Assembly: GCA_964592255.1 (NCBI GenBank)
Contig: CAZQCI010000006.1
Span: forward strand, 1 to 39,892
Direction: 5' to 3'
DNA from: an uncultured Nitrospiraceae bacterium
GTDB lineage: Bacteria > UBA10199 > SBBF01
Length of the DNA: 39,892 nt
Program-made: the position numbers and the translations under genes
Notes under the pieces: generated by a model
Database searches by the model: none
Told to the model about the DNA's origin: nothing
Seen by the model: only the letters and a program-made list of their open reading frames with translations
Shown: in pieces, positions 121 to 16,295 of the stretch
Position numbering within the stretch: the stretch's first letter is position 1
Layout: each line of letters begins with the position of its first letter

Positions 121-1038
121 ATGAAGAAAAGTCTTCCATCCAAACTCTCTCACTTAAAAGTATTGGAGGCCGAAAGCATCCATATCATTCGTGAGGTTGC
201 CGCTGAATTTGAAAACCCTGTCATGCTTTATTCCATTGGCAAGGATTCCTCCGTTATGGTGCGTCTGGCGCAAAAAGCATTTTACCCGGCACCTTTGCCT
301 TTTCCATTGATGCATATCAACACAACTTGGAAATTTAAGGAGATGATTCAATTCCGCGATCAGTTTTGCAAAGCAAACAGTCTGCGGCTGATTGAGCATA
401 TTAACCAGGATGCCATTAAAGAAGGGATCAATCCTTTCACACATGGAAGCCAAAAATATACAACGGCCCTTAAGACACAGGGATTAATCCAGGCGCTGGA
501 CAAATATGGTTTTGATGCCGCTTTTGGTGGAGCCCGACGTGACGAGGAAAAATCGCGTGCCAAGGAGCGGGTTTATTCCTTTCGTGACAAAAATCATCAA
601 TGGGATCCTAAAAATCAGCGGCCGGAATTGTGGAATCTCTACAACAGTAAAATTAACAAAGGTGAAAGCATTCGTGTGTTCCCTCTGTCTAACTGGACGG
701 AATTGGATATTTGGCTCTATATCGAGTTGGAAAAAATTCCCATCGTGCCTCTTTATTATGCCAAGAAACGTCCTGTAGTAGAACGTGGCGGGACACTCAT
801 CATGGTTGATGACGATAGGCTTCCTCTTAAAAAAGGTGAAAAACCACAGATGAAGACAGTGCGGTTCCGAACGCTTGGCTGCTATCCGCTTACGGGTGCC
901 ATTGAATCGAATGCCAAAACACTTAAAGATATTATTCAAGAAATGTTACTGACAAAATATTCCGAACGACAAGGTCGGTTGATCGACAGTGACGAGGATG
1001 CCTCGATGGAGAAGAAAAAACGGGAGGGGTATTTTTAA
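121..1038 (+). CDS. cysD: sulfate adenylyltransferase subunit 2 (CysD)
   Basis: 305-aa ORF with the PP-loop (SIGKDS) of the PAPS-reductase/ATP-sulfurylase small-subunit fold and CysD-like sequence end to end. An AGGAGG RBS precedes the ATG. Confidence 0.9.
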
Positions 1039-1040
1039 TG

Positions 1041-1136
1041 GTCATCCCCGCGAAGCCCCATAGGGGCGAAGGCGGGGATCCAGGTCCCCAGGGCATGGTG
1101 AACTTGAATCATGGATCCCCGCCTACGCGGGGATGA
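1041..1136. repeat. GC-rich hairpin doublet in the cysD-cysN spacer
   Basis: Two stems of ATCCCCGC / GCGGGGAT. The first encloses an inner GCCCC-ATA-GGGGC hairpin. The second (1114-1136, CTAC tetraloop) has its 3' arm overlapping the predicted cysN ATG. Confidence 0.6.
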
Positions 1137-2578
1137 CAGAAAATATAACAATGCAAGAATCCCAATTAATCAAAAAGGATATCGCCAAATATCTCCGCCT
1201 GCACCAAGAGAAAGAATTGCTGCGCTTTACTACGGCGGGATCCGTGGACGACGGAAAATCCACACTCATCGGGCGACTTTTGTTCGACACTAACGCCGTT
1301 TACGAAGATCAACTGGACTCTGCCCGCAAAGCAACCAAGATGGAAGTGGGGGAAGATATTGATCTCTCTCTTTTAACTGATGGTTTGAAAGCGGAACGCG
1401 AGCAGGGCATTACCATTGATGTTGCTTATCGTTATTTTACCACTGCTAAGCGCAAGTTCATCATCGCAGATACGCCAGGGCATGTTCAATACACCCGCAA
1501 CATGGCAACGGGCGCTTCCACGGCGGATGTGGCCATCATTCTAATTGATGCTCGTTTAGGAGTGCAGCCTCAATCAAAACGCCATGCGATGATCGCTTCT
1601 CTTTTAGGTATTCCAAAATTATTGGTGGCTGTTAACAAGATGGATTTAAAAAATTACAGCCAAAAAGTTTTTGAAGAAATTAAAACTGATTTTCAAAAAA
1701 TTGTTTCAACCATGACTTTTAAAGAAGTGGCTTTTTTTCCGGTGAGCGCCCTCAAGGGTGATAACGTTGCTGAAAAAAGTAAGAACATGCCTTGGTTTAA
1801 AAAAGGAACCGTTCTTAATTTTTTAGAAACAACACCTCTGATCCGGCATACGTCTCAAAGAGATTTGTTTTTTCCAGTTCAGTATGTTCTTCGGCCGGAT
1901 CTTAATTTTAGGGGTTATGCGGGGCAAATTGCCAGTGGTTCTGTTAACGTTGGTGATGAAGTGATGGTGCTGCCCGCCGGAAAAGTAAGCCGGGTTAAAT
2001 CCATTGTCACTTACGATGGAAAAATAAAATCAGCCAGCGAGCCACAATCGGTTGTGCTCACTCTCACCGATGAAGTCGACATCAGCCGTGGGGATGTGCT
2101 GGTGCATAAGAACAATCATTTTAGAGTTAGCCGCCAATTAAAAGCTGATGTCGTATGGATGAACGAAACACCACTTAAACTCAAGCATCCTTACTGGATT
2201 AAACAAGCTTCAAGTTTAGTGACGGGTTCTTTTACAAGTGTGGATCAAGGTCTTGACATCAATACGTTAGAAACCATTTCCGTCACCACCCTCAATCTTA
2301 ACGACATTGGCGAAGTCACTCTTAATTTGAGTCGTCCGTTGGTATTTGAGAATTATGAAAAAAATCGGCAGGCGGGTGCTTTCATCATCATCGACCGTCT
2401 TACCAATGCTACAATGGGTGCGGGGATGGTCTCCAGTGTTTTGGACAATACTATTTTGGATGAAAACGCAACAATGCCGATGGATCAGTTTCTTACTTCA
2501 TTAATCGACGAGAGATCGAGTGAGTCTGAAAAAGCCGACAAAATTATTTCTTATCTGCAACAAAGAAAATTTTTGTAA
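1133..2578 (+). CDS. cysN: sulfate adenylyltransferase subunit 1, GTPase (CysN)
   Basis: P-loop GSVDDGKST, DTPGH, NKMD GTPase motifs and EF-Tu-like domains typical of CysN. The start could instead be the ATG at 1150. Confidence 0.9.
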   Translation: MTENITMQESQLIKKDIAKYLRLHQEKELLRFTTAGSVDDGKSTLIGRLLFDTNAVYEDQLDSARKATKMEVGEDIDLSLLTDGLKAEREQGITIDVAYRYFTTAKRKFIIADTPGHVQYTRNMATGASTADVAIILIDARLGVQPQSKRHAMIASLLGIPKLLVAVNKMDLKNYSQKVFEEIKTDFQKIVSTMTFKEVAFFPVSALKGDNVAEKSKNMPWFKKGTVLNFLETTPLIRHTSQRDLFFPVQYVLRPDLNFRGYAGQIASGSVNVGDEVMVLPAGKVSRVKSIVTYDGKIKSASEPQSVVLTLTDEVDISRGDVLVHKNNHFRVSRQLKADVVWMNETPLKLKHPYWIKQASSLVTGSFTSVDQGLDINTLETISVTTLNLNDIGEVTLNLSRPLVFENYEKNRQAGAFIIIDRLTNATMGAGMVSSVLDNTILDENATMPMDQFLTSLIDERSSESEKADKIISYLQQRKFL

Positions 2579-2581
2579 GTT

Positions 2582-3421
2582 TTACTGCGGATTCAAAATA
2601 TTCTTAAAAAGTAAATCTAGGTTTGTATCTTCAAAAGGAATGGGAAGTCCTAAAGTCTGTTTATCACTCACCGTATTCCATGTGTCATTTATTTTAGAAA
2701 AAACAAATTCTGTCCATAAAATCTGTCCGTTGGCTAGCGTTGGCAAGGCAAGCATAATGCGTTCAGGATCTTCAGGATGTTTGTAACGAATGAGTAAGGC
2801 TTGTTTTGAATTATCGGCATCTAAAGAGACTAGTTGAATTTCTTGCAATTCTCTCCCAGGAGCGGGAATGGGCAGCATGGCTTGTTGTGGACTTTGGCCT
2901 TTAAGGGTTACGGTTACTTGACCCTGATTTATTTCAAAATTTTTAATGGGTACTAGAGGGTTAATTGTTACGTTTTCTGTGCGATTACCCAGTATACTTC
3001 CAAAAACAGTGGTATTGTAAGGAGTGGGGTTAGTTGTATTTAGTTGGGTTATTAAATTGGTCAATTCTTCAAAATTACCAATAAAAGGAAAGGCTGTTGA
3101 TAAGGAAGAAACCCCTTCATTTTTTAGTTTTCCATCCGGAATATTTTTTCCCGCATCGCCCAAATTAATTTTTTCTGTAGGTGTTTTAAAAAGACATGAT
3201 CCATGTTTATTTTTAAAAGAATATCCCGGATGAAAAGCGGCTAGTTCATCATACGCTTTAGCCAAAGCCTCACGTAAAGTTTCTTTATTACCTGATTGTG
3301 AAGAGTCTAAATCGTTAAAGGTATAAGGATCATTAGCCGTTGGATCGGTTTGAATCATCTGAGCTAATTCTTGATTGTTGGTATGCTGAAGAAGTAATTT
3401 ATTAAGCTTATTTTCTGCCAT
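2582..3421 (-). CDS. hypothetical protein (279 aa), distal gene of the sulfur operon
   Basis: Long ORF with no recognisable motif and no signal peptide. It is on the same strand as and directly downstream of cysH, and convergent with cysN (3-nt gap). Confidence 0.5.
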   Translation of the reverse strand: MAENKLNKLLLQHTNNQELAQMIQTDPTANDPYTFNDLDSSQSGNKETLREALAKAYDELAAFHPGYSFKNKHGSCLFKTPTEKINLGDAGKNIPDGKLKNEGVSSLSTAFPFIGNFEELTNLITQLNTTNPTPYNTTVFGSILGNRTENVTINPLVPIKNFEINQGQVTVTLKGQSPQQAMLPIPAPGRELQEIQLVSLDADNSKQALLIRYKHPEDPERIMLALPTLANGQILWTEFVFSKINDTWNTVSDKQTLGLPIPFEDTNLDLLFKNILNPQ

Positions 3422-3466: not shown

Positions 3467-4240
3467 TTAAGAATCCATTTCGGTAGAGTCTTTAGGTTCT
3501 TCAACATGGAGACCACATTCTTTGGAATTGGGATCCAGGGCGTTAAACCACCGCCAGCGGCCGGCGCGCCTTGGTTCTGTTGGGGAAATAGGTGTGGTGC
3601 ACAGAATGCAACCCAGCGATTCGTAGGTCCAGCCGTTTTCGTTCCAGTTAAGTAAAGGGTGCATGGGCACTTTGTTTTTCTTGATGTAGTTGCGTAATTG
3701 TTCTTCTGTCCATTTGAGAAGCGGGGAGACTTTTAAAATCGGGTGATGATCTTCCGGATGATGAATGATTTGAAATTGGGGTGTTTTGGCTCTTCGGGCC
3801 GATTGATCGCTGCGTAGTCCGGTAAGCCAAACATCCACGGTTTTGAGAATTTTATTATTGGGGCGCACTTTTCGTATATTGCAGCACAGTTCCTGTTTTT
3901 CTTTGCTGTCGAAAAAAAGATATTCGCCGTTTTCGGAAATCATTTTCTTCAAATCCTCACCATCCGGCTGAGTGCGTTCAATTTGGATTTTATATTTTTT
4001 TTCTATTTCATCGAAGAGTTTATAACTTTCCGGAAAAAGACGGAGCGTATCCAGAGTGAATACACGCGGGTTAACTTTAGCATTGTGTGCTAAGTCGATC
4101 ATGACCACACCTGTTAATTGGCCGCTAGTGCCGATGGCCGCCCGCTTGCCGAAACGTGAAAAAATTTCGCCGATCAATTGACCCGCATCGGTGATTTTTT
4201 CAAGGTCGTGGATTAGCTCGTTATTGATGATAGTTTGCAA
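3467..4240 (-). CDS. cysH: adenylylsulfate (APS) reductase, thioredoxin-dependent, Fe-S type (CysH)
   Basis: PAPS-reductase fold with the C-terminal ECGLH catalytic motif, plus the extra Cys pairs (CC in ELCCNIRK and CxxC in GCILC) that distinguish APS reductases from PAPS reductases. TTG start. Confidence 0.85.
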   Translation of the reverse strand: MQTIINNELIHDLEKITDAGQLIGEIFSRFGKRAAIGTSGQLTGVVMIDLAHNAKVNPRVFTLDTLRLFPESYKLFDEIEKKYKIQIERTQPDGEDLKKMISENGEYLFFDSKEKQELCCNIRKVRPNNKILKTVDVWLTGLRSDQSARRAKTPQFQIIHHPEDHHPILKVSPLLKWTEEQLRNYIKKNKVPMHPLLNWNENGWTYESLGCILCTTPISPTEPRRAGRWRWFNALDPNSKECGLHVEEPKDSTEMDS

Positions 4241-4343: not shown

Positions 4344-4955
4344 TCAAATAATTTTCTTTTCTTTTAAAAATGCAATGATCTTATCAACACTATCTTTCAA
4401 TCTTTCCTTTCCCGTCTGGAGAATCAATTCCGGGTTAAGAGGGGCTTCGTAAGGAGAAGAAAGTCCAGTAAAGTCGGGAATTTTTCCGTCACGTGCTTTT
4501 TTATACAATCCTTTTGGATCCCGACTTTCACATTCTTCCAACGTGGCGGCACAGTAAATTTCTATAAACCCGCGTTGAGGGATTAAGTTTCTTACAAAAT
4601 CTCTGTCTGTACGAAAAGGAGAGATGAAGGCTGTGAGCACAATAACATTAGATTCAAAAAATAGTTTGGATACTTCACCAATTCTGCGGATGTTTTCTTT
4701 TCGATCTTCTGGGGAAAAACCCAAATTATTATTTAAGCCGTGACGGATATTATCACCATCTAATACTGTGGCGAATTTTTTTTGTTTCAAAAGAATCTTT
4801 TCAACTTCGTAAGAAATTGTGGATTTACCCGAACCGGATAACCCTGTAAACCAAAGTACAGCACCTTTTTGACCCAGCAATTGTTCACGTTGAGCGGCAT
4901 CGATATGAGCCGTTTGCCGCACAATGTTTTGGCTTTTGGGTTGTTTTTCAGTCAT
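4344..4955 (-). CDS. cysC: adenylylsulfate kinase (CysC)
   Basis: P-loop GLSGSGKST and APS-kinase-wide similarity, at 203 aa. Confidence 0.9.
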   Translation of the reverse strand: MTEKQPKSQNIVRQTAHIDAAQREQLLGQKGAVLWFTGLSGSGKSTISYEVEKILLKQKKFATVLDGDNIRHGLNNNLGFSPEDRKENIRRIGEVSKLFFESNVIVLTAFISPFRTDRDFVRNLIPQRGFIEIYCAATLEECESRDPKGLYKKARDGKIPDFTGLSSPYEAPLNPELILQTGKERLKDSVDKIIAFLKEKKII

Positions 4956-5319
4956 TATAGACTTTCATTTCACACGATACGCTTTGGCTTATTTGCTGAA
5001 TATCAGAGTTACCGAATAATTTTTTCAAAAAATTTCTTTTTTCAGTAACCACAACTAAAAGATCCACATCAGGGTCTGCGGCCATTTTTTTACAAACATC
5101 GGCATAACTTCCGGCTTCTTGGCGTGTTTCAAAAGGCGCTTGAAAAGTGCGGCATTGTTTTTCAACCTCGTCGATGATTTTAGAATCCGCATCTTGGCCA
5201 TTTTCTTTCACAAAAACAAAACGGAGTGTTTTATTGCCTTCCTTGCATTTGTGAAGCGCCCAATGAAAACCTTCAGTTGATTGACGAGCCGGGGTAATGA
5301 TGTAGAGGATGAATTTCAA
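4948..5319 (-). CDS. universal stress protein family (UspA-like)
   Basis: 123 aa with an Usp-type alpha/beta fold signature. It overlaps the upstream carrier gene by 4 nt and cysC by 8 nt. TTG start. Confidence 0.6.
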   Translation of the reverse strand: MKFILYIITPARQSTEGFHWALHKCKEGNKTLRFVFVKENGQDADSKIIDEVEKQCRTFQAPFETRQEAGSYADVCKKMAADPDVDLLVVVTEKRNFLKKLFGNSDIQQISQSVSCEMKVYND

Positions 5320-5615
5320 ATTCCCCCCGCAATGGCCGGAACAATACTGATTTCGTCCCCGTCTTTTACTGCAGTTTTTTCTCCCTGTAAAAAACGGATA
5401 TCTTCGTCATTGACATAAAAATTGATAAAGCGGCGCAGTTGACCGCCTTCATCATAAAGACGCGATTTTAGCCCTGCAAATTGAGAGTCTAAGGAGCTTA
5501 AAACTTCACCGACAGTGGTGCCTTTACCTTCAACTTCGCCCAGATTTTGGGTTAGTTTTTGAAGAGGAGTTGGAATGCGCACTTTAATGGCCATAAATAA
5601 AAAGTAATTAGACAC
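5316..5615 (-). CDS. MoaD/ThiS-family sulfur-carrier protein (CysO-like) with a one-residue C-terminal extension (..AGG-I)
   Basis: A core of roughly 90 aa, MAIKVRIP...GEVE...ISIVPAIAGGI, typical of the beta-grasp sulfur carriers. The C-terminus is Gly-Gly-Ile. GTG start with an AAGGA SD, or the internal ATG eight codons downstream. Confidence 0.7.
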   Translation of the reverse strand: MSNYFLFMAIKVRIPTPLQKLTQNLGEVEGKGTTVGEVLSSLDSQFAGLKSRLYDEGGQLRRFINFYVNDEDIRFLQGEKTAVKDGDEISIVPAIAGGI

Positions 5616-5671
5616 CGATCCTTGTCACTAGCTTAAAACTAGGGACCATAAATCAGGGACTAATAACTGTA

Positions 5672-6139
5672 TTAAAGAATTTTTCTTTCTGCAAAATCGC
5701 TCGTTTGGTTGTCCCAATAAAATTCGGAAGAGTTTTTTACTTCACCTCCGTATACCGAGACAACGATATAAGATAAATCTGGAAATAAGGGTTCACCCCA
5801 AGGGGCGGCCATACCTTTATCTTCCGCTGAAAAATAAACACCATGTTCTGGATGCGAGTGAAAAATGCACAAAATCTTTTGATTATTTTTAAGGGCCTCT
5901 TTCTCAATTCGCTCCATATCTTTGGGATCAATTGTGTAGGCTGTTTTAGCATCGCGCGGATAGCGCTGAGGATCTTTCGCATGCACATCATTCTGGATGT
6001 TGTTAACCGCAATCACATTACTGGCGATACGTTTTCCATTAACTAAAGAACCGATGACAAAGCCACACCCTTCGTGAGGGTAACACTTCTCAGATTCTCT
6101 ATAAATGTCCTCTAATAATTGTTGTCGAATTTCTAACAT
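5672..6139 (-). CDS. JAMM/MPN+ zinc metalloprotease (Mec-like)
   Basis: Complete JAMM motif E..HSHPEHGVYFSAED (E, HxH, x7, S, xx, D). It is directly upstream of the sulfur-carrier gene. Confidence 0.8.
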   Translation of the reverse strand: MLEIRQQLLEDIYRESEKCYPHEGCGFVIGSLVNGKRIASNVIAVNNIQNDVHAKDPQRYPRDAKTAYTIDPKDMERIEKEALKNNQKILCIFHSHPEHGVYFSAEDKGMAAPWGEPLFPDLSYIVVSVYGGEVKNSSEFYWDNQTSDFAERKIL

Positions 6140-6158
6140 ATTAACTTTGATAAGTTGT

Positions 6159-6224
6159 CATTGCGAGGCAAGTGGCAACGAAGCAATCCAGCTGGATTAC
6201 CGTGGCCCTGTGGACCTCGCGATG
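6159..6224. repeat. MITE/REP-like palindromic element, family B
   Basis: Terminal inverted repeats CATTGCGAGG / CCTCGCGATG with an inner perfect palindrome AATCCAGCTGGATT. It lies in the spacer between the JAMM and CysM-like genes. Confidence 0.55.
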
Positions 6225-6231
6225 ATGGCTA

Positions 6232-7134
6232 CTACCATTTCATTCCTTCAAAATACCGGTCGCCGTGATCGGGAAAAATGGTGACGATAACGCCCGACTT
6301 TATTTTTTGTGCTAACCGGATACAAGCTAAAAGAGCACCTCCTGACGAGTAGCCAACTAAAAGTCCTTCTTCTTTTCCCAAACGTTCCACTAAATCGTAA
6401 CTGGGTTCGGTTTCTATGCCCATGACCTCGTCCAATTCTGCTTCTTTATAAATTCCTGGAACGATGGAGGTGGGCATGTGTTTTAATCCTTCTAGTCCAT
6501 GCAAAGAATCGGCGGGCTGGGCTCCGACACAATAAATTTTTTTATTAAAATCTTTAAGCCGCCGTGTAATACCCATAGCCGTTCCACTGGTGCCCATGGT
6601 GGCTACAAAGTGAGTGACTTTTTTGTCTGTCTGCTCCCAAATCTCAACGCCTGTTGTGTCGTAATGCGCTTGAGGATTCATGGTGTTATTATATTGGTCC
6701 GGCATAAAATATTTTCCAGGATTTTCCGAAAACAATTTTCTGGAAAGGCGGATGGCGCCATCGGAGCCTTCCATTTCGCTGCTGAAGGTGATGGAGGCAC
6801 CAAAAGCTTTGGCCATTTCCTTGCGTTGATAAGACACATTTCCTGGCATAACCAGTTCCACTTGATATCCTAACGCAGCCCCGACCATGGCGTAGGCTAC
6901 CCCTGTGTTTCCAGATGTGGGGTCCATGATGATTTTATCTTTGGTTAGTTTTCCCGATTTAATTCCTTCCATCACCATTCGGTAGGCGGCACGGTCTTTG
7001 ACCGATCCGCCGGGATTGAAATATTCCAATTTAGCGTAAATGGAAACGGAATCGGGAATTAACCCTTTTACTGTTTCTCGAATACGGACTAAAGGAGTAT
7101 TGCCGATGCGCTCTAATATGGACGACAGAATCAT
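6232..7134 (-). CDS. PLP-dependent cysteine synthase family protein (CysM-like, candidate thiocarboxylate-dependent)
   Basis: Fold-type II PLP enzyme with the lysine motif SVKDR and GNTG. It is clustered with the MoaD-like carrier and JAMM protease, as in CysO/CysM/Mec. Confidence 0.75.
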   Translation of the reverse strand: MILSSILERIGNTPLVRIRETVKGLIPDSVSIYAKLEYFNPGGSVKDRAAYRMVMEGIKSGKLTKDKIIMDPTSGNTGVAYAMVGAALGYQVELVMPGNVSYQRKEMAKAFGASITFSSEMEGSDGAIRLSRKLFSENPGKYFMPDQYNNTMNPQAHYDTTGVEIWEQTDKKVTHFVATMGTSGTAMGITRRLKDFNKKIYCVGAQPADSLHGLEGLKHMPTSIVPGIYKEAELDEVMGIETEPSYDLVERLGKEEGLLVGYSSGGALLACIRLAQKIKSGVIVTIFPDHGDRYFEGMKW

Positions 7135-7136
7135 TC

Positions 7137-7400
7137 TTACCCTTCGATCACATTCATCTCGATGGGTTCCACCGTCAACCCACGCGACTGGAAGAATTTC
7201 ATGGCCTCAGTGACTTTGTCATCTGGCCCTTCTAATTCTACAGCCATCAAACCGACTTGTTCATTAACCGAAGCGGAGCGAATATTGAAGCGGACTTTGT
7301 ATTTGTCATACATGTCGCAAATGATGGCTTCCTTCACTTGCTGAGTGGGGAAAGTTAAATAAACTTTGCGTCGTACGTTTTTAGACATATTTTTGCTCAT
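7137..7400 (-). CDS. NIL-domain protein (87 aa)
   Basis: GLMAVELEGPDDKVTEAMKFFQSRGLTVEPI matches the NIL (MetN C-terminal-like) ferredoxin-like domain. It ends ..VIEG. Confidence 0.55.
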   Translation of the reverse strand: MSKNMSKNVRRKVYLTFPTQQVKEAIICDMYDKYKVRFNIRSASVNEQVGLMAVELEGPDDKVTEAMKFFQSRGLTVEPIEMNVIEG

Positions 7401-7452
7401 CCTTCGACAGGCTCAGGATGTCCTGATGGGGACATGGTGAGCTTGTCGAACC
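7401..7452. repeat. MITE/REP-like palindromic element, family C copy 1
   Basis: Near-perfect 50-nt hairpin TTCGACAGGCTCAGGATGTCC-tgatgg-GGACATGGTGAGCTTGTCGAA that exactly fills the ThrC-like/NIL spacer. Confidence 0.65.
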
Positions 7453-7459
7453 ATGATAC

Positions 7460-8695
7460 TTAATTCGTTTTTATTTTTTCCACCAACTCTTCAAATTCCG
7501 CAAGAGTCGGTTTGATAATAGGCGGTTTACCTAATTTGTCCACCACAGCTTCCTGTGTTTTTAAGCCGTTACCGGTGATACACAGCACAATGGATTCGTC
7601 TTTAGGAATACGTCCCGATTCAATCAGTTTTTTTGCAACCCCCATGGTAACCCCACCGGCTGTTTCGGCAAAAATCCCTTCACTTTCAGCTAAAAGTCTA
7701 ATGCCTTCAATGACTTCGTCATCACTGACATCTTCGCACCAACCGCCGCTTTGAAGGGCGGCTTTAGCAGCATAGAAGCCATCTGCCGGGTTACCGATGG
7801 CTAGTGATTTAGCAATTGTATTTGGTTTGACGGGTTTAAAAATTTCCCAACCATTTTTAACAGCGGTGGAAATGGGGGAACAGCCTGTGGCTTGTGCTCC
7901 ATAGATTTTGGCATCATTTTTTTCAATCAAGTTCAGTTTGTGAAATTCGTGAAATGATTTGTCGATTTTGGTTAAAAGTGATCCGCTGGCCATGGGCACA
8001 ACAACATGTTGTGGGGTGCGCCAGCCTAGTTGTTCCATAATTTCATAACCCATCGATTTGGAGCCTTCGGCATAATAAGGGCGCATATTGATGTTGACGA
8101 AAGCCCATTTATATTTGCCGGCAATTTCACTGCAGAGGCGGTTGACTTCATCATAAGTTCCATGAATGCCGACCAAATGTGTTCCATAAATCATTGTTCC
8201 TAAAACTTTGGTGGCTTCCAGATCATACGGAATAAAAACAAAGCTTTCAAAGTCACCAGCCGCAGCATTGGCCGCAACGGAATTAGCCAAATTTCCAGTA
8301 GAGGCGCAGGATACCACTTTAAAACCAAATTCGCGTGCTTTGGAAAGGGCCACTGAAACAACCCGATCTTTAAAAGAAAGAGTTGGGTAGTTAACAGCAT
8401 CATTTTTAATGTAGAGTTCTTTTACTCCCAAAGCTTTGGCTAGGCGGTTGGCGCGACGTAAGGGGGTGAATCCCGTTTGGCGCCCTACTGTGGGATCATT
8501 ATCAATCGGTAGTAATTCCTTATAGCGCCACATGTTGGGTCCACGAGAGAGAATTTTTTCGCGATTTAAATCTTTTTTGATTAAATCATAATCGTAAACC
8601 ACTTCCAAAGGGCCAAAACAAAATTCACAAACATGTGTTGGTTCTTTGGGGTATTCATGGCCGCATTCACGGCATTTTAAGGCTTTGGCGTACAT
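7460..8695 (-). CDS. threonine-synthase-like PLP enzyme with N-terminal zinc ribbon
   Basis: ThrC-family fold (SFKDR lysine motif) preceded by CRECGHEY..CEFC. From its operon context (SAM riboswitch, NIL partner, sulfur carrier) it may be a homocysteine-forming ThrC paralog rather than a bona fide ThrC. Confidence 0.7.
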   Translation of the reverse strand: MYAKALKCRECGHEYPKEPTHVCEFCFGPLEVVYDYDLIKKDLNREKILSRGPNMWRYKELLPIDNDPTVGRQTGFTPLRRANRLAKALGVKELYIKNDAVNYPTLSFKDRVVSVALSKAREFGFKVVSCASTGNLANSVAANAAAGDFESFVFIPYDLEATKVLGTMIYGTHLVGIHGTYDEVNRLCSEIAGKYKWAFVNINMRPYYAEGSKSMGYEIMEQLGWRTPQHVVVPMASGSLLTKIDKSFHEFHKLNLIEKNDAKIYGAQATGCSPISTAVKNGWEIFKPVKPNTIAKSLAIGNPADGFYAAKAALQSGGWCEDVSDDEVIEGIRLLAESEGIFAETAGGVTMGVAKKLIESGRIPKDESIVLCITGNGLKTQEAVVDKLGKPPIIKPTLAEFEELVEKIKTN

Positions 8696-8767: not shown

Positions 8768-9691
8768 TTAATTTTTAAAAAATTCCTCCAAACTAAAATA
8801 TCTTTGCCCGGCGTCACACAAAAACGTGAGAACTTTTTTTCCAGGACCTAATTTTTGAGCCACCTGCAAAGAGGCATGGATGTTGGCTCCGCTGGAAATA
8901 CCAACCAAAAGACCTTCCTCGCGTGACAGTCTACGAGTAGCGGCATAGGCTTCCGCATCGGTAACGGTAACTACTTCGTCAATCAAACTCCGATTCAGGT
9001 TTTTAGGAATAAACCCATGGCCTAATTGCTGAATTCGATGCCTGCCCGGTTTTCCTCCTGATAAGACGGACGATGCCCGTGGCTCTACGGCTACAATTTT
9101 CATCTTTGGGTTTTTTCCCTTTAACACTTCACCCACGCCGGTCAAACTACCTCCGGTTCCAACACCTAGAACTAAGGCATCCACACCCTCTGGAAAATCT
9201 TCCAAAATTTCCACCGCTGTTGTTTTACGGTGGGCTTCAGGATTAGCGGTGTTGTCAAATTGATGTGGAGCAAAACAATTTTTGTTTTTTGCCACATATT
9301 CTTCGGCTCGTTTAATGGCCCCTTCTAGTCCTTCGGTACTGGGTGTTTTGTGGAGAGTGGCCCCAAAACCATAAAACATTTTCCGTCGCTCTAAACTCAT
9401 GTCTTCAGGCATGAAGATGACTAATTTTAACTTTTTAACAGCGCACACCATGGCCAATGCGACGCCTGTATTGCCAGCGGTAGCATCGACGATTTCCGTA
9501 TCTTTTTTAATTTTGCCTTCCGTCAGTCCTTTTTCAATCATCGCCAGTGCAATGCGGTCTTTGATAGAAAGGCTAGGGTTTCCGGCCTCATATTTGCCGA
9601 AAATGTCCGCATTTTTTCCTTCCGCGATTTTTTTTAAGCGGATAATCGGGGTTCTTCCGATCGTATTAAGAATAGAGTCGGCAATTTTCAT
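8768..9691 (-). CDS. cysK: cysteine synthase A (O-acetylserine sulfhydrylase, CysK)
   Basis: SIKDR, GNTG and the GISSGA-like PLP motifs. The F/L-rich N-terminal extension in the ORF track is just the terminator U-tract, so the true start is the ATG at 9691 (MKIADS..). Confidence 0.85.
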   Translation of the reverse strand: MKIADSILNTIGRTPIIRLKKIAEGKNADIFGKYEAGNPSLSIKDRIALAMIEKGLTEGKIKKDTEIVDATAGNTGVALAMVCAVKKLKLVIFMPEDMSLERRKMFYGFGATLHKTPSTEGLEGAIKRAEEYVAKNKNCFAPHQFDNTANPEAHRKTTAVEILEDFPEGVDALVLGVGTGGSLTGVGEVLKGKNPKMKIVAVEPRASSVLSGGKPGRHRIQQLGHGFIPKNLNRSLIDEVVTVTDAEAYAATRRLSREEGLLVGISSGANIHASLQVAQKLGPGKKVLTFLCDAGQRYFSLEEFFKN

Positions 9692-9699
9692 GAGTAAGA

Positions 9700-9746
9700 A
9701 AGCAAACAAAAAAGACAAAAAAAAACCTCTTCTTGTAAGAAGAGGG
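9700..9746 (-). terminator. intrinsic terminator (riboswitch expression platform)
   Basis: Minus-strand hairpin CCTCTTCTT-aca-AAGAAGAGG followed by TTTTTTTTTGTCTTTTTTGTTTG, immediately 5' of cysK. Confidence 0.8.
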
Positions 9747-9868
9747 ATAATTAAACTCTTCTTATCTTTCCCAAACGGGACGGAATTAGCACCTTAATAA
9801 GATCTTTTATAAAGGTTGCTGTGGCTTCAACGGGCCTATCCCTCAGCCACTCTGGATAAGATGTGGCA
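9700..9868 (-). ncRNA. SAM-I (S-box) riboswitch
   Basis: Minus-strand read CUUAUCcAGAGuGGCuGAGGGAuaGGCCCGuuGAAGCcaCAGCAACC ... AAGGUGCUAAUUCC ... GAUAAGAAG matches the S-box consensus block by block (P1 CUUAUC/GAUAAG). It is followed by a terminator whose 5' arm can alternatively pair with the P1 3' strand. Confidence 0.85.
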
Positions 9869-9920: not shown

Positions 9921-11357
9921 ATGTCTCAATACGAAACCGTCATTGGTCTTGAGGTGCATGCTCAGCTTCGGACTCAATCTAAAATCTTTTGTTCTTGTTC
10001 TACAGCTTTTGGATCTCCTCCTAATCAAAACACATGTCCTGTTTGTTTAGGGCTTCCGGGGGTTTTGCCTGTTTTGAATAAAAAAGTAGCTCATTTTGCC
10101 ATTGCGGCGGGGCTTGCTTTAAACTGTGATATTCAGAAAAAATCCATTTGGGCGCGAAAAAATTATTTTTATCCCGATCTTCCTAAGGGCTATCAAATTT
10201 CCCAATATGAAGAGCCTATTTGTCTCAAAGGACATTTGGATATTGTTGTTAGTGGAAACAAAAAACGTGTGGGGATTACTCGTATTCACATGGAAGAAGA
10301 TGCTGGAAAATTATTGCACGATCACGGCGACCCTTCATCGTCACACGTCGACTTAAACCGCGCGGGAACCCCGCTCATCGAAATTGTCAGCGAACCCGAT
10401 ATGCGTTCGGCCGTGGAAGCCGGAGAATATTTGCGACAGCTTCGTTCTATACTGCGCTATTGTGGTGTGTGTGACGGTAATATGGAAGAAGGCAGCTTGC
10501 GCTGTGACGCGAATGTATCGATACGTCCCTTAGGCCAAAAGGAATTCGGCACAAAAGTGGAATTAAAAAACATCAATTCGTTTAAATATGTAGAAAAAGC
10601 GATTGAGTATGAAGTGGAACGTCAAAAAGCGTGTCTTCTTTCTGGTGAAAAAATTGTTCAAGAAACCCGTCTTTTTGATTCCGCTAAAGGAACGACGGAA
10701 TCGATGCGTTCTAAAGAACAGGCGCATGATTATCGTTATTTTCCCGACCCCGATTTGGTACCCCTTGTTCTTGATGATGTTTGGATTGAGACTGTCCGCA
10801 AGGAATTACCCGAATTGCCTTTGGCGCGCTCGGCCCGTTTTATCACAGAGTATCAAATTCCGGAATATGATGCGGATGTGCTAACTGTAGAAAAAGCGCT
10901 GGCTGATTATTTTGAAGCGAGCGTCGCTCTTTGCAAACAGCCGAAGAAAGTATCCAATTGGATTATGACGGAACTTCTCCGCGAACTTAAAAATTCCGGA
11001 AAAGATATCGAAGATTCACCCATTACACCATCTCAATTAGCCAAGCTGGTAGAACTTGTAGAAAACAACACCATTAGTGGCAAAATCGGTAAAACTGTTT
11101 TTGAAGAAATGTTTGCTACTGGTAAAAATCCTGAAGCTATCATCGAGGAAAAAGGTTTTGTTCAAGTTTCCGACACCGGTGCTATCGAATCCATCATCGA
11201 CAAAGTGATGGCAGCCAATCCTCATCAACTGGCTCAATATAAATCCGGCAAAGATAAACTTTTCGGATTTTTTGTAGGCCAAGTGATGAAAGAAATGAAA
11301 GGCCAAGGAAACCCCGCCGTTATTAATGATTTGCTCAAAAAGAAATTGTCCGTTTAA
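9921..11357 (+). CDS. gatB: Asp-tRNA(Asn)/Glu-tRNA(Gln) amidotransferase subunit B (GatB)
   Basis: N-terminus [12 protein letters not shown], then the GatB/YqeY C-terminal domain, at 478 aa. Confidence 0.9.
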
Positions 11358-11632
11358 ACTTTGAGAAGTTGATAAGGCTCCAGCCCAAAAGCTTTGGCGA
11401 GTTTGAAAAGGTTGGAAAGAGTGATATTTTTGGTGTCTCCGGCTTCAATTCTTTGGAATTGCCGCAAATTCAATTCAAAATCCTGCATCTGTTCCTGAGT
11501 TAGCCCTTGGGTGGCCCTTAGTTCGGCTATTTTAAGGTGGATTTTACGGGAAAATTTTTCAAACTCTTCAAAATAATTACTTTGGCGGTGAATACCTCTT
11601 TTCTGGATGGATTTGAACTTTTTCTTAGGCAT
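11354..11632 (-). CDS. XRE-family helix-turn-helix transcriptional regulator
   Basis: 92 aa with the [16 protein letters not shown]...RIEAG. Its stop overlaps gatB by 4 nt (convergent). Confidence 0.6.
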
Positions 11633-11851: not shown

Positions 11852-12922
11852 ATGATTTCTTTTAAAACAATCGAATGGAAAAATAACACCGTTGTCATGC
11901 TCGACCAACGGGCTTTGCCGTCTCAGGAAGTTTATCTTACTTTTCGCACGGCTGAAGAAGTAGGGGAGGCTATTAAATCCATGGTTATTCGTGGGGCTCC
12001 GGCTATTGGGGTTGCGGGAGCCATGGGTTTGGCTCTGGGAGCTTTGGAGATTGAAACCACAGACTCTGCTGACTTTGTTCGTCAGTTGGAAATTAAAGCC
12101 GATATGCTTTTGAAAACACGGCCTACAGCTGTGAATCTTCAATGGGGTTTGGAAAGAATGAAGAAGGTTGTGAGTAACTCCCCCCAACCCCCTCTTACTT
12201 TAAAAGGGGGAGTTAACTTCTTACAAACTCTTCTTGTTGCCGAAGCGCAAAAAATTCTAGAAGAAGATATTACCATCAACCAAAAAATGGGGGCTTACGG
12301 AGCCTCCCTGATTCAATCGGGGGATCATGTTCTTACGCATTGCAATGCCGGGGCTTTAGCCACTGCTGGATTTGGTACAGCTTTGGGCGTTTTGTATGCC
12401 GCTTGGGAGCAAGGAAAAAAATTCGACGTGTATGCCGACGAAACTCGTCCTTTTTTGCAAGGGGCTCGTCTCACAGCCTGGGAGTTGCATAAAAATAATA
12501 TTCCTACCACCCTGATCACCGACAATATGGCGGGCTGGATGATGAAAAAAGGATTGATTACAAAAGTCATCGTCGGTGCCGACCGCATTGCGGCTAATGG
12601 AGATACAGCCAATAAGATTGGAACTTATTCTGTTGCGATTCTAGCGCATCATCACAAAATTCCTTTTTATGTGGCAGCCCCTTTATCCACCATCGATCTT
12701 AAAACCAAAACAGGGGATGGTATTGTTATTGAAGAAAGAGATACCCGGGAAGTCACTCACCTTATGGGGACACCCGCTGCCGGTAATCTCATTGCGCCGG
12801 AAGGCATTCGGGTTCGCAATCCCGCTTTTGATGTAACCCCCGCCGATCTCATCACCGCCATCATTACGGAAAAGGGAATAGTCGAAAAACCGTTTTTTCA
12901 AAATATCCAAGCTCTGTTTTGA
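11852..12922 (+). CDS. mtnA: S-methyl-5-thioribose-1-phosphate isomerase (MtnA, eIF-2B family)
   Basis: [15 protein letters not shown] and the C-terminal [18 protein letters not shown] motifs of MtnA. It contains an in-frame copy of the family-A palindromic element. Confidence 0.8.
12175..12216. repeat. in-frame copy of palindromic element family A inside mtnA
   Basis: TAACTCCCCCCAACCCCCTCTTA is the exact reverse complement of 4316-4338. A 10-bp TIR TAACTCCCCC / GGGGGAGTTA encloses a hairpin. At 42 nt (14 codons) it reads through as ..[14 protein letters not shown].. Confidence 0.7.
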
Positions 12923-13022
12923 TTTCAGAGGGTCAGTTTAACAAGGGTGAAGTAACGTAGTTATACCGGATCCATTACTTCTGTGTGTTGACGCCCGGCG
13001 CTTGTAATGATAGGGAAATTTT

Positions 13023-13949
13023 ATGGGAAAAGTAACAAAAGTTGAAAAAATTTGGTTAGACGGAAAATTAGTTCCTTGGGATTCTGCCCAGGTTCATGTG
13101 CTGACGTACGCTCTTCATTATGGCCTGGGAGTATTTGAAGGGATTCGATGTTATGAATGTGCTGATGGAACAAGTGCCATCTTTCGTTTGAAAGAGCATA
13201 TCGATCGGCTGTTTGATTCTGCTAAAATCAACATGATGGAAATTCCGTTTACGCGGGAAGAATTAATGCAAGCTTGTAAAGATGTTGTTAAAAAGAACGG
13301 TCTTAAATCCGCTTATATTCGTCCTTTAGTTTTTGTCGGTGATGGGGAAATGGGATTAGTTGCTTTTAATAACCCCGTTCGCGTGATGATTGCGGCTTGG
13401 TCGTGGGGAAGTTATTTGGGCGATGAAGGAGTTAAAAATGGCATCCGTGCTAAAATTTCCAGTTATTCGCGTTACAATGTAAACGGCAATATGACGCGGG
13501 CTAAAACGTGCGGCAGCTACATTAATTCCATTCTAGCCAAGCGCGAAGCTCTGGACGCTGGTTATGAAGAAGCTCTTTTGCTGGATGCTGAAGGTTATCT
13601 TGCCGAGGCTACCGGGGAAAATATTTTTGTTGTTCGGGATGGTGTAGTTCGTACACCGGGCTCGGGCTCTTCCATTCTTTTGGGTATTACCCGTCATACG
13701 CTTATGACATTATTGCAAGAAGAAGGCATTGTCTGTCGGGAAGACCGTATTACACGTGATGAAGCTTATATTGCCGATGAAATTTTTCTCTGTGGTACGG
13801 CTGCGGAACTTACCCCCATTCGTGAACTTGATGGGCGAAAGATTGGCACAGGCAAGCCAGGACCCATCACTAAAAAACTACAGGAAATTTATTTTGGTCT
13901 CATTCGCGGCAAAAATCCTAAACACAAAGAATGGCTGGCAAGTGTTTAA
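13023..13949 (+). CDS. ilvE: branched-chain amino acid aminotransferase (class IV PLP, IlvE)
   Basis: VFEGIRCY, the HIDRL-type motifs and its length of 308 aa. Confidence 0.8.
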   Translation: MGKVTKVEKIWLDGKLVPWDSAQVHVLTYALHYGLGVFEGIRCYECADGTSAIFRLKEHIDRLFDSAKINMMEIPFTREELMQACKDVVKKNGLKSAYIRPLVFVGDGEMGLVAFNNPVRVMIAAWSWGSYLGDEGVKNGIRAKISSYSRYNVNGNMTRAKTCGSYINSILAKREALDAGYEEALLLDAEGYLAEATGENIFVVRDGVVRTPGSGSSILLGITRHTLMTLLQEEGIVCREDRITRDEAYIADEIFLCGTAAELTPIRELDGRKIGTGKPGPITKKLQEIYFGLIRGKNPKHKEWLASV

Positions 13950-13963
13950 TTATAGGATGGTTC

Positions 13964-14027
13964 TTCGACAGGTTTAGGGCGTTCTGTAGTTAGACGTGGT
14001 GAGTTTGCTAGAGTGTGGCTTGTCGAA
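13964..14027. repeat. MITE/REP-like palindromic element, family C copy 2
   Basis: The same termini, TTCGACAGG ... GGCTTGTCGAA, as the copies at 7401 and 28981. It sits in the convergent ilvE/pgpA spacer. Confidence 0.55.
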
Positions 14028-14040
14028 TAGTTTTAATTTC

Positions 14041-14514
14041 TTAAGTTCTCCAAAAAAAGGAAATGTAGAACATTACACCGGCTTGAATGGCTGCGACCAA
14101 GTCGTCCCCCACAACGCCTGAACCTCCAGGAACTTTCTTTTGTACCCAATTGGCAGGAAATACTTTAAGCATATCGAAAATTCTAAAAAACACAAAACCA
14201 AGCACAAGTCCAAGCCACGAATAAGGTATAAAAAGATAAGTTACAAGTTGCCCGGCGACTTCGTCGATTACAATTTTTTGGCAATCTTTTTCTCCGAAAA
14301 TTTTTTCTGCAAAATGTGCTATGAAAATGGCAAATAGCGTCAGGCTTAAGGTGAAAAAGTAGTACCAGGCATGCGGGAGCCCGATATAATGAAAGCTGTA
14401 ATAAATCCAAACACCCCACAAACTTCCTATTGTGCCTGGCATGAGGGGCGAATAACCAACACCTAAACCTGTGGCGAATAATTTGATAAAAAACCTAATG
14501 ACCGCTTTCAGCAT
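14041..14514 (-). CDS. pgpA: phosphatidylglycerophosphatase A (PgpA)
   Basis: 157-aa polytopic membrane protein with GLGVGYSP..PGT.GS and the VVGDD PgpA signatures. Confidence 0.75.
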   Translation of the reverse strand: MLKAVIRFFIKLFATGLGVGYSPLMPGTIGSLWGVWIYYSFHYIGLPHAWYYFFTLSLTLFAIFIAHFAEKIFGEKDCQKIVIDEVAGQLVTYLFIPYSWLGLVLGFVFFRIFDMLKVFPANWVQKKVPGGSGVVGDDLVAAIQAGVMFYISFFWRT

Positions 14515-14543
14515 GAATGATGTGGATAGCTCTTAAGAGAGGC

Positions 14544-16295
14544 TTAAGCAACAAAAACGTTGGCACTTGTTTGGGAAGGATAATAATCGCTATCGGATAA
14601 GTCGATGTCTTCGGGAATAATTTCTTCATCTTGGGCTAATTCAAAAGCCGCAGCGGCAATTTGTTCCGTTGTGGAATCGCGGCCTTCTTGTCCCATGCCA
14701 CCTTCTCCTTGGCTGCCACGGTCGCTGACACCGTTTAAGGGCTTATCAAGGCTAGCTGCCACTTCACGAGAAGTTTTTGATTCGGAAACAAGATTTCCGT
14801 TATTGCCAGCCATGACTCCTGATGCAAAAGCTTGAGCCGGAAGAATGACAGGGTTAGCTGCCGAAGGAACTATATTTCCATTGTTTTGAGCTGTTGTGAC
14901 AATTGAAGCGGAAACAGATTGTTCCGCAACTGAGTTTGGACCCGTGTTGTTAATATTTAAAACCGTTGAGTCAGAACCGGTATCAGTTTCATGAGACGAG
15001 TTATCTGTTAAAGCTGAAGCGTTTTCAGTGGAGGTGCCTTGAGCTTGTTGATGTTGGCCATCAGTACCATTTGTGGCTACTGAGGTCAGTTTGGCTTCTC
15101 CCTGAGCGCTAAGCGATGATGTTTGTCCTGTATTTGTTGAAGACTCAACGGAGCCTTCTAAATTTTGGTGAGCCCCACCTTGCACTAGCTCTGTTCCTGC
15201 ATTGGCTACAAGGATTGAAGAATTTGAAGTTGTTTCTGAAGCCTTATCAGTTGTTAAAAAATTTCCTGACACATCGGATGAAGTAACTGTGGTGCCGGTG
15301 CTTGTTGTATTTGCTGTACTTCCCGATGTTGTGGCCAAAAGTGTGTTTGTTGTTGTTGCTGTGGCTGGCTCAGATGAAGATTGTTGAGTTACGGAAGTTG
15401 TTCTTGTGGTTGACGATGTTGAGCTTGTTGCGCCAACGGTTGTGCTGGCCATTAAATTGGCGACAGAGCCTGTATCCGTTATTTCCGTTTCTGTGGAGCC
15501 GGGTTCATATGAGTTGCTGTACCAAATGCTGGTTGGGAGGTTAAAGATAGAACTGGTACCGGTTAATTCTGTTGTTGGGGTGGATCCAGTAGATCCTTGT
15601 TGAGGAGCAACTTCAGTTGCAGCTACTTCGGGAGAAGGTGCGGGTGCTGCTGTTCGCGCATTTGTCGTTGTTGCAGTAGCTATAGCGGTTTTGGTTTCTT
15701 GAGCATTTGGAATAATTTCTGGAATTGCAGCTAAAGTCGTTTGTTGTGGATCTGCTGTAGTGGGTGCTAGGTATTGAGATAACGAGGCTACAAGTTGGTC
15801 CCCGGCTTCCTCTCCCATCACAGCTTTGGCCACCGTGGCAATATCTTCGGCATGCTCTGCTAAAACTTTTTTGGCGGCATCTTCTAATTCAGCCACGCCT
15901 TGTTGTGTGTCTTCTGGTAAAAGTTTTTTAGCCCCTTCGTAAAGGGCTGCTGCTGCTTGAGCCGTATCTTTATGGGCTTCGATGTTAGAATCAACAATGG
16001 CGGCAGCTAAATCTTGTGCGGCTTTTGTTGGGTCTTTCTTTATATCATCAAGAGAGTGTTTATCGTAGAATTTTACAATAGCGGCGGTTGTTGGAAATTC
16101 TTTTTCAAGAGCTTTCGTTGCTTCATCAACATACTGATTGGCTATGTTAGTGTACTCATCAGCCGTTTGAGATACTTCCTCCGAATTAGGCAAACCAATC
16201 TTGGGAGCATACTCATCGTAAGTGCTAACAAGACTGTCTTTAGCATCGTCGTAGAGGGAGCTGAGCCAACTTTTATTTTCCGTCGGTGAAGTCAT
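14544..16295 (-). CDS. Ser/Thr/Ala-rich low-complexity protein (583 aa), unknown function
   Basis: A helical N-terminal region of about 200 aa, a roughly 300-aa T/S/A/G/N-rich disordered tract, and an acidic C-terminus (DEEIIPEDIDLSDSDYY). No signal peptide. Confidence 0.5.
   Translation of the reverse strand: MTSPTENKSWLSSLYDDAKDSLVSTYDEYAPKIGLPNSEEVSQTADEYTNIANQYVDEATKALEKEFPTTAAIVKFYDKHSLDDIKKDPTKAAQDLAAAIVDSNIEAHKDTAQAAAALYEGAKKLLPEDTQQGVAELEDAAKKVLAEHAEDIATVAKAVMGEEAGDQLVASLSQYLAPTTADPQQTTLAAIPEIIPNAQETKTAIATATTTNARTAAPAPSPEVAATEVAPQQGSTGSTPTTELTGTSSIFNLPTSIWYSNSYEPGSTETEITDTGSVANLMASTTVGATSSTSSTTRTTSVTQQSSSEPATATTTNTLLATTSGSTANTTSTGTTVTSSDVSGNFLTTDKASETTSNSSILVANAGTELVQGGAHQNLEGSVESSTNTGQTSSLSAQGEAKLTSVATNGTDGQHQQAQGTSTENASALTDNSSHETDTGSDSTVLNINNTGPNSVAEQSVSASIVTTAQNNGNIVPSAANPVILPAQAFASGVMAGNNGNLVSESKTSREVAASLDKPLNGVSDRGSQGEGGMGQEGRDSTTEQIAAAAFELAQDEEIIPEDIDLSDSDYYPSQTSANVFVA

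Follow-up and report, generated by a model that had tools for sequence, protein, structure and literature searches.

A stretch of 39,892 nucleotides from contig CAZQCI010000006.1 of an uncultured Nitrospiraceae bacterium (assembly GCA_964592255.1), called the window hereafter, raises the question of what a threonine synthase-like (ThrC-like) gene is doing in a minus-strand operon headed by a riboswitch for S-adenosylmethionine (SAM), in the company of genes for a CysM-like sulfhydrylase, a JAMM metalloprotease, a small NIL-domain protein and a beta-grasp sulfur carrier. An initial annotation, based on the sequence alone, had proposed these five genes as a module for the protein-thiocarboxylate-dependent synthesis of homocysteine and cysteine. 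The analysis described here favors, with a probability of about 0.7, a related but larger arrangement, in which a SAM-I riboswitch controls a sulfur amino acid unit merging two protein-thiocarboxylate pathways around one carrier.

The genes of the window were taken from a list of its open reading frames (ORFs) with their translations and were annotated with Pfam and NCBIfam (Table 1). All five ORFs of the module were recovered on the minus strand where the initial annotation had placed them, with strong Pfam matches to the domains it had named, and the SAM riboswitch that it had recognized proved to be the sole Rfam match across the whole window. The order on this strand is SAM-I riboswitch, terminator, cysK, ThrC-like gene, NIL gene, CysM-like gene, JAMM gene, carrier gene, Usp-like gene, cysC and cysH. 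The terminator hairpin (9745-9726), GC-rich and 8 bp long, is located immediately 3' of the aptamer and is followed by a tract of nine T residues; the leader is a classical termination-type S-box. The listed TTG start of cysK (9718) falls within this T tract, and the ATG at 9691 is therefore its likely start. From the leader terminator down to cysH, no further intergenic terminator was found on the minus strand. Several genes of the operon also abut or overlap, the start of the Usp-like gene overlapping the stop of the carrier gene and its stop overlapping the start of cysC, so that a single transcript is likely. The genes of the module, first delimited to 5316-8695, are thus all present, but the unit is longer, with cysK at its head and the Usp-like gene, cysC and cysH at its end. 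What this work observes directly is the identity of the genes, the families to which their sequences belong, their synteny, the riboswitch and the gene fusions.

Table 1. Features of the sulfur amino acid operon and of the sulfate activation genes that face it (bits are profile scores).
Feature	Position	Strand	Evidence
SAM-I (S-box) riboswitch aptamer	9759..9862	-	Rfam RF00162, 85.3 bits, E 5.9e-19, full model 1-108
Intrinsic terminator (riboswitch expression platform)	9716..9745	-	8-bp stem CCTCTTCT/AGAAGAGG then T9
cysK (O-acetylserine sulfhydrylase A), first gene of the operon	8768..9691	-	TIGR01139, 392 bits vs cut-off 351
ThrC-like gene (predicted MetM-type ThrC paralogue), 411 aa	7460..8695	-	PALP, 221 bits; N-terminal CxxC...CxxC zinc ribbon
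Stand-alone NIL-domain protein, 83 aa	7137..7388	-	PF09383, 56 bits; ORF listed 7137-7400
CysM-like PLP (pyridoxal phosphate) sulfhydrylase	6232..7134	-	PALP; TIGR01138 cysM 354 bits, below cut-off 394
JAMM/Mec-type metalloprotease	5672..6139	-	Prok-JAB, 70 bits; E22, H-S-H-x7-S-x2-D intact
CysO/MetO-type beta-grasp sulfur carrier, ends AIAGG-I	5316..5594	-	ThiS family, 64 bits; ORF listed 5316-5615
Usp-like protein, 123 aa, TTG start	4948..5319	-	Pfam Usp, 28.5 bits
cysC (adenosine 5'-phosphosulfate (APS) kinase)	4344..4955	-	PF01583, 220 bits; NF003013, 274 bits
cysH (APS/3'-phosphoadenosine 5'-phosphosulfate (PAPS) reductase)	3467..4240	-	PF01507, 125 bits; NF002537, 198 bits, above cut-off
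Probable cysN	1133-2578	+	GTP_EFTU and GTP-eEF1A_C domains
Probable cysD	121-1038	+	PAPS_reduct, 181 bits

A precedent for a threonine synthase homologue in homocysteine synthesis exists. MetM converts O-phosphohomoserine into homocysteine, and the thiocarboxylate of the sulfur-carrier protein MetO is the sulfur donor, according to the accounts given in Appendix 4 of GapMind 2026 (10.1101/2024.10.14.618325) and in PMC12172450, citing Hasebe et al. 2024. In the former account, maturation of the carrier is the task of Mec, and MoeZ charges it with sulfur (10.1101/2024.10.14.618325); in the latter, metM of Streptomyces albulus is preceded by a SAM riboswitch (PMC12172450). The initial annotation had equated the ThrC-like/NIL pair with MetM/MetO. 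This assignment has to be corrected, since MetO is described in both sources as the sulfur carrier (10.1101/2024.10.14.618325; PMC12172450), which corresponds here to the gene at 5316-5594; the NIL protein comes in addition to the MetM/MetO pair.

To which family, then, does the ThrC-like protein belong? A scan in which each species was represented by a single genome produced 80 related loci encoding homologues with 62-84% identity to the window protein. They come from metagenome-assembled genomes labelled Deltaproteobacteria, Zetaproteobacteria, Dadabacteria, Thermodesulfobacteriota, Verrucomicrobiota, Nitrospinota, Planctomycetota and others, and the cultured Mariprofundus micogutta is among the Zetaproteobacteria that carry such a locus. 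In a joint alignment with solved ThrC, this clade is 48-84% identical internally and shares 32-40% identity with the threonine synthase structures of Bacillus and Aquifex, which are 61% identical to each other. There are 31 positions where both structures have the same residue and at least 97% of the clade a different one. The ThrC motif STGNT becomes STGNL and the motif N-S-V-N-P-Y-R becomes N-I-N-M-R-P-Y-Y, each in at least 97% of the clade, and eight residues are inserted after the GCSP motif. The Thr, Ser and Arg replaced in this way are presumably those holding the substrate phosphate in the Thermus enzyme; on this assumption, the replacements fit an altered fate of the gamma position. 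The N-terminal CxxC...CxxC ribbon carries the Pfam label 'NinF'.

A tblastn search of a plasmid collection revealed one outlier, in Nonomuraea gerenzanensis, with 53% identity to the window enzyme; the remaining matches, mostly annotated thrC, reached at most 36.5%. The Nonomuraea locus is ordered SAM riboswitch, ThrC-like gene and a 91-aa carrier ending in AVAGG, which is the layout reported for Streptomyces, and the carrier in the MetO position is 48% identical to that of the window. On the basis of these comparisons, the product of the ThrC-like gene is predicted to be of MetM type, that is, a ThrC paralogue apart from the housekeeping threonine synthase, and to act on O-phosphohomoserine as a carrier-thiocarboxylate-dependent homocysteine synthase. 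The same plasmid collection also holds haloarchaeal megaplasmids (H2-H21) with a full-length 'thrC' that includes the zinc ribbon, at ~35% identity.

The genomic context of the clade was counted in those 64 loci whose downstream flank reached 3 kb or more. The ORFs of the loci were searched by domain-level phmmer with the proteins of the window and with the E1 activating enzyme and the sulfite reductase (Sir) found in the loci, because single-linkage clustering merged the carrier with the NIL families, and all PLP enzymes with one another. A CysO-type carrier adjoins the ThrC-like gene in all 64 loci. NIL is present in 38, six times as a fusion. A CysM-like gene occurs in 14 loci, always with NIL, and a JAMM gene in 13, always with the CysM-like gene; a ThiF-type E1 (~270 aa) is found in 27, each with NIL, and a Sir-like reductase in 20. 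With an nhmmer profile made from eight SAM-I elements confirmed by Rfam, the riboswitch was detected in 46 of the 80 loci, immediately 5' of the ThrC-like gene and on its strand. The minimal recurrent layout is MetM-carrier. It is extended to MetM-carrier-NIL in Verrucomicrobiota and to MetM-carrier-NIL-CysK-E1-Sir in Zetaproteobacteria, and other recurrent layouts are MetM-Sir-Sir-carrier-NIL-CysM-JAMM-E1 and MetM-CysM-JAMM-carrier~NIL-E1, where the tilde marks a fusion. The layout of the window, CysK-MetM-NIL-CysM-JAMM-carrier-Usp, recurs in the loci L001 and L082-L084, with conserved gatB/mtnA/ilvE/pgpA flanks. The Usp-like protein occupies the same position in L001, L082 and L083; in L084, this place is taken by a 117-aa ORF without a Usp match. 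The initial annotation had also stressed the presence of the APS reduction genes in a SAM-controlled operon. This holds for the window, but the linkage is not conserved: cysC and cysH shift position among the closest relatives, and lie on the opposite strand in L084, so that their inclusion in the SAM-controlled transcript is specific to the window.

The carrier, of which a single gene is present in the window, likely starts at 5594, which gives a protein of 92 aa. In the PDB it best matches, along its whole length, two CysO proteins, that of Amycolatopsis (4n6e_B, E 3.5e-22) and that of M. tuberculosis (3dwg_C, E 2.4e-21), the latter entry being the CysO-CysM complex; matches to SAMP or MoaD proteins are far weaker. 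The suspicion that this gene could encode a MoaD of molybdopterin synthesis is not borne out, as the moaD profile TIGR01682 scores only 17 bits against a cut-off of 66 and no moaE is found in the window. The same carrier probably serves both the MetM-type and the CysM-like enzymes, judging from the gene content of the cluster. The CysM-like protein is most similar in the PDB to the CysM of E. coli and Salmonella (E 9e-69), and the M. tuberculosis CysM is not among its best 60 matches. Its product is predicted from sequence to be a carrier-thiocarboxylate-dependent cysteine synthase, and is treated here by analogy as a functional equivalent of the mycobacterial CysM rather than as its orthologue.

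The JAMM gene gives further insight into this part of the cluster. A tie between the protease and the C-terminal extension of the carrier was considered and ruled out by 44 extended carriers without a nearby JAMM gene; the majority of the carriers of the family have one to several residues beyond the GG, with or without a neighboring JAMM gene. The local JAMM gene therefore tracks CysM and not the extension. In the mycobacterial chemistry, the cysteine adduct rearranges to an amide and needs a hydrolase. By analogy, the constant association of JAMM with CysM would fit the hydrolysis of a carrier-cysteine adduct. The CysO/CysM/Mec logic recognized by the initial annotation is thereby retained, with a carrier of the CysO family, an intact JAMM motif and JAMM genes accompanied by CysM in 13 out of 13 related loci.

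The NIL protein is the component of the operon for which no description in such a role was found in the literature searched. Its start at 7388 agrees with the gene calls of public records, where it is named 'FeS-binding protein', 'NIL domain-containing protein' or 'ABC-type methionine transport ATPase subunit', the first of these names being a carry-over. An AlphaFold2 model has a beta-alpha-beta-beta-alpha-beta fold and superimposes on the methionine-binding C2 domain of MetN (Foldseek, TM score of 0.80 to 3tui_C). This domain was also retrieved at E 0.02 by a profile search of the PDB; a search with the single sequence returned only spurious GAF-domain matches (E >0.3). In the profile alignment, the Asn of the N-I-R motif, invariant within the NIL subfamily of the window and at least 90% conserved family-wide, is aligned with N295 of the E. 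coli MetN, which we take to be a methionine-binding residue for trans-inhibition. A role of NIL as persulfide carrier was considered and rejected. Cys24, its only cysteine, is invariant in the subclade of the window and missing in the Zetaproteobacterial, Verrucomicrobial and fused forms, and such a role is unlikely since the sole cysteine is not conserved beyond this subclade.

The carrier and NIL are encoded as one protein in 6 of the 80 loci, in the form carrier-AIAGG, short linker, NIL. A database search with one of these fusions identified at least 120 clusters of carrier-NIL fusions, 167-189 aa long, with both Pfam domains and down to 52% identity, and in three further fusion loci a MetM-like gene is adjoining in all cases. 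The AlphaFold2 model of a natural fusion contains two confident domains separated by a disordered linker at the GG. It offers no fixed interface between carrier and NIL (predicted TM score of 0.51) and hence no support for the idea that NIL docks physically onto the carrier. In this model, the fusion looks more like a cleavable precursor than like a rigid unit. Several loci display variations on this theme. In L056, a 355-aa protein (12096-13163) joins a carrier (…AIAGG) via Gly-Gly to a ThiF/MoeB-type E1, and a second E1 (9966-11117) has an N-terminal rhodanese-like region. L086 is a cluster of the fusion type that lacks a JAMM gene; there, the E1 gene is directly followed by one for a ClpP-family protease (9132-9719), which might serve as an alternative processing protease or lie there by coincidence. 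In L087 (8324-13075), the carrier~NIL cluster is followed by two DsrE-family genes, a Na/sulfate symporter, Usp, DsrE2 and TusA, which suggests a persulfide relay feeding E1 and carrier in some lineages. In Zetaproteobacterial clusters such as that of L060, a 781-aa sulfite-reductase-like protein (12171-14516) with a C-terminal TusA-like segment (…GVACPMNF…) closes the MetM-carrier-NIL-CysK-E1 series.

NIL would be a conserved accessory belonging to the MetM/MetO system, and the binding of a methionine-like ligand, or the docking of a partner, would be its most likely function. It is probably not needed for the chemistry itself, because the minimal loci and the Nonomuraea locus have no linked NIL. 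A more ambitious proposal can be formulated, which is tentative and on balance rather doubtful: NIL would be a third component of thiocarboxylate-dependent homocysteine synthesis, sensing methionine or homocysteine or docking the carrier; a carrier-GG-NIL polyprotein would be cut by a protease in many lineages; and, in the lineage of the window, one carrier would supply cysteine and homocysteine under the joint control of the SAM riboswitch and NIL. If this were true, the carrier-GG-NIL precursors would be a bacterial counterpart of the ubiquitin-fusion precursors.

For the operon as a whole, we infer the catalytic steps, the sharing of the carrier by two enzymes and the role of NIL as follows. 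When SAM is low, transcription would pass the terminator. The JAMM protease would trim the terminal Ile of the carrier (...AIAGG-I), exposing the Gly-Gly, and the carrier would then be adenylated by an E1 whose gene would lie in another part of the genome. Sulfide, derived from sulfate via CysDN, CysC, CysH and an unlinked sulfite reductase, would then convert the adenylated carrier to a C-terminal thiocarboxylate. With the MetM-type enzyme, this thiocarboxylate would replace the phosphate of O-phosphohomoserine to produce homocysteine. With the CysM-like enzyme, the same carrier and O-phosphoserine or O-acetylserine would give a carrier-cysteine adduct, from which cysteine would be released through hydrolysis by the JAMM protease. 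CysK would form cysteine from free sulfide in parallel. Finally NIL, with its MetN C2 fold, may tune the pathway by binding a methionine-like ligand or by docking the carrier.

The weight of this scheme depends on how other explanations of the same genes compare with it. The ThrC-like gene could be an ordinary threonine synthase located in a sulfur operon, in which only the CysM/JAMM/carrier trio would use a thiocarboxylate, for cysteine. Its product is indeed named threonine synthase in public records and passes the NCBIfam thrC cut-off (TIGR00260, 274 bits), and in the window the carrier adjoins the JAMM and CysM-like genes rather than the ThrC-like gene. Moreover, a MetM homologue of Microcystis is described as a threonine synthase/deaminase in vitro and as not clearly a MetM in vivo in the account of PMC12172450. 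Against this explanation, the GapMind appendix presents MetM as frequently misannotated as threonine synthase (10.1101/2024.10.14.618325). A SAM riboswitch, which is no threonine signal, precedes the gene in more than half of the loci, the constant adjacency of the carrier includes 50 loci without CysM, and the distance to solved ThrC is accompanied by remodelled motifs. A plain threonine synthase is therefore considered very unlikely. A second explanation accepts MetM and questions the sharing: MetM would use free sulfide, leaving the carrier to the CysM-like enzyme, or the carrier would belong to MetM only, next to a CysM using thiosulfate or sulfide. The resemblance of the CysM-like protein to the enterobacterial CysM is in line with this view, as is the CysK of the same operon, which shows the use of free sulfide. 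Such a division appears rather unlikely given that the cluster has a single carrier gene, that the MetM-carrier adjacency is universal and that JAMM is found only alongside CysM, as expected for the hydrolysis of a carrier-cysteine adduct.

A function outside sulfur transfer can also be envisaged, the carrier, the JAMM protease and an unlinked E1 forming a ubiquitin-like conjugation system of the SAMP/desampylase type. The carrier scores 56.6 bits with the NCBIfam SAMP1 profile, slightly below the cut-off of 60, and the protease has a weak desampylase match (35 bits against a cut-off of 130). This idea is hardly credible, since the carrier matches CysO at 1e-21 to 1e-22 as compared with about 1e-5 for the SAMP1 structure, and is in fixed linkage with PLP sulfhydrylases, sulfate-assimilation genes and a SAM riboswitch. 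As for NIL, it might have no role of its own and act in the fusions only as a C-terminal cap to be removed, comparable to the lone Ile of the window carrier, while the separate gene would be a remnant. The two independent domains and disordered linker of the fusion model would suit a cap, and so would the many loci without a linked NIL. A remnant would hardly be expected to keep 67% mean column identity and 25 invariant columns out of 83 in the stand-alone form, nor to be retained as a separate gene in several phyla with the signature N-I-R...G...E..G...V-P-E conserved family-wide; a mere cap is thus unlikely. Beyond the thrC score and the Microcystis enzyme, other points weigh against the merged unit itself. 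The link to the characterized MetM of S. albulus passes through the Nonomuraea proxy only, the CysM-like enzyme is nearer to the CysM of E. coli than to that of M. tuberculosis, about 40% of the loci are without a linked NIL gene and the model of the fusion has no fixed interface. In addition, neither an E1 nor a sulfite reductase is encoded in the window or in the closest relatives. Their absence from the window, already noted by the initial annotation, was confirmed for E1 by phmmer with a cluster-encoded E1 as query and for sulfite reductase by Pfam in the ORFs of at least 100 aa and in a 92-aa ORF (11354-11632).

The merged unit can be placed among several known systems. With MetM/MetO of S. 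albulus, as described in the sources given above, it shares a ThrC-homologous enzyme, a carrier of the ThiS/MoaD type, an upstream SAM riboswitch and a maturase of the JAMM type (Mec); for S. albulus, the E1 gene is reported to lie apart from this locus. It differs from that system by the NIL, CysM-like and JAMM genes inserted between metM and the carrier gene, by the one residue beyond the GG of the carrier, by the NIL protein and by a transcript that includes cysK, the Usp-like gene, cysC and cysH. The host, too, is different: its lineage is AT-rich and uncultured, with relatives that bear the label 'Deltaproteobacteria'. The M. tuberculosis CysO/CysM/Mec/MoeZ pathway makes cysteine with a carrier, a linked PLP sulfhydrylase and JAMM protease and an unlinked E1. 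The window resembles it in the linkage of a CysO-like carrier to a PLP sulfhydrylase and a JAMM protease; unlike in that pathway, the PLP enzyme is nearer to E. coli CysM, the carrier also stands beside a predicted homocysteine synthase and control is exerted by a SAM riboswitch. Wolinella succinogenes reportedly possesses another thiocarboxylate route to homocysteine, HcyS/HcyD/HcyF/MetY, said to have been described by Krishnamoorthy and Begley in 2011. In that system, the carrier likewise has a residue beyond the GG, which a JAMM protease is reported to remove, and sulfate-assimilation genes are linked; clusters related to that of the window also include E1 and Sir. The enzyme is different, MetY being of fold type I and using O-acetylhomoserine, whereas a ThrC paralogue of fold type II, presumably using O-phosphohomoserine, is found here.

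The fusions also have a parallel in MoaX, the mycobacterial MoaD-MoaE fusion, which is cleaved at the GG. In both cases a beta-grasp carrier is fused via GG to a pathway partner, so that cleavage is needed before use; here, the carrier is joined to a NIL domain or, in L056, to an E1, and the cleavage is predicted. NIL itself shares the fold and an N-I-x-S-A motif with the C2/NIL domain of MetN (PDB 3tui, 3dhw, 3dhx) but is, in contrast to MetN, a stand-alone protein of 83 aa, or fused behind a carrier elsewhere, without an ABC ATPase. A NIL domain is already tied to homocysteine formation in MA1821/MA1822, a DUF39 protein and a NIL-ferredoxin of methanogens and Desulfovibrio, which form homocysteine from aspartate semialdehyde and sulfide (PMC5764234). 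Unlike MA1822, the protein considered here (83-87 aa) consists of a NIL domain only and has no ferredoxin domain, and no DUF39 is found in the window.

The remaining genes of the operon and of its surroundings complete this picture. The Usp-like protein has no obvious G-x2-G-x9-G-S ATP motif, and its candidacy as a sulfur relay of the DsrE type was rejected, Usp being the only match even at E up to 5. The translation of CysH shows CC...CxxC and ECGLH motifs, the former an iron-sulfur motif that we assume to be typical of APS reductases; despite this motif, the APS kinase gene cysC lies directly upstream of cysH. The sulfate activation genes cysD and cysN (121..2578) are convergent with the operon. 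On its own strand, cysH is followed directly by a 279-aa ORF (2582-3421) without Pfam or NCBIfam match and unseen in the related clusters. Farther away, a 654-aa ORF (23444-25408) joins HemD (uroporphyrinogen-III synthase) and HemE (uroporphyrinogen decarboxylase) domains in a neighborhood of haem genes (HemN-like, UPF0093, ferrochelatase). Two large ORFs of 1107 aa (33423-36746) and 583 aa (14544-16295) are devoid of any Pfam match, toxin-like genes (ParE family toxin, PIN domain) are located at 19124-19426 and 32887-33285, and the 92-aa ORF at 11354-11632 encodes a small helix-turn-helix protein.

Both thiocarboxylate pathways and the JAMM-trimmed carrier are already known. In the literature searched, no description was found of their merger around one carrier under an S-box riboswitch, of a NIL partner with widespread carrier fusions, or of the breadth of the ThrC-like clade among uncultured phyla; publications searched for thiocarboxylate, homocysteine and riboswitch contained neither a NIL partner nor a merged cysteine/homocysteine cluster, and those on the NIL domain dealt solely with ABC transporters or with methanogens and Desulfovibrio. 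The description of the MetM/MetO route dates from no earlier than 2024 and comes from Streptomyces, and the enzyme-carrier pair appears here very strongly conserved in many uncultured phyla, including Zetaproteobacteria, Verrucomicrobiota, Dadabacteria, Thermodesulfobacteriota, Planctomycetota, Chloroflexota and others, where it is routinely annotated as threonine synthase and MoaD. Recognizing this pair would close gaps in the methionine pathway of metabolic reconstructions. NIL and its fusions with the carrier introduce a new candidate player, and would constitute a second, independent link of the NIL domain to homocysteine/methionine chemistry. Finally, the merged cysteine/homocysteine cluster suggests that one pool of protein thiocarboxylate may supply both sulfur amino acids.

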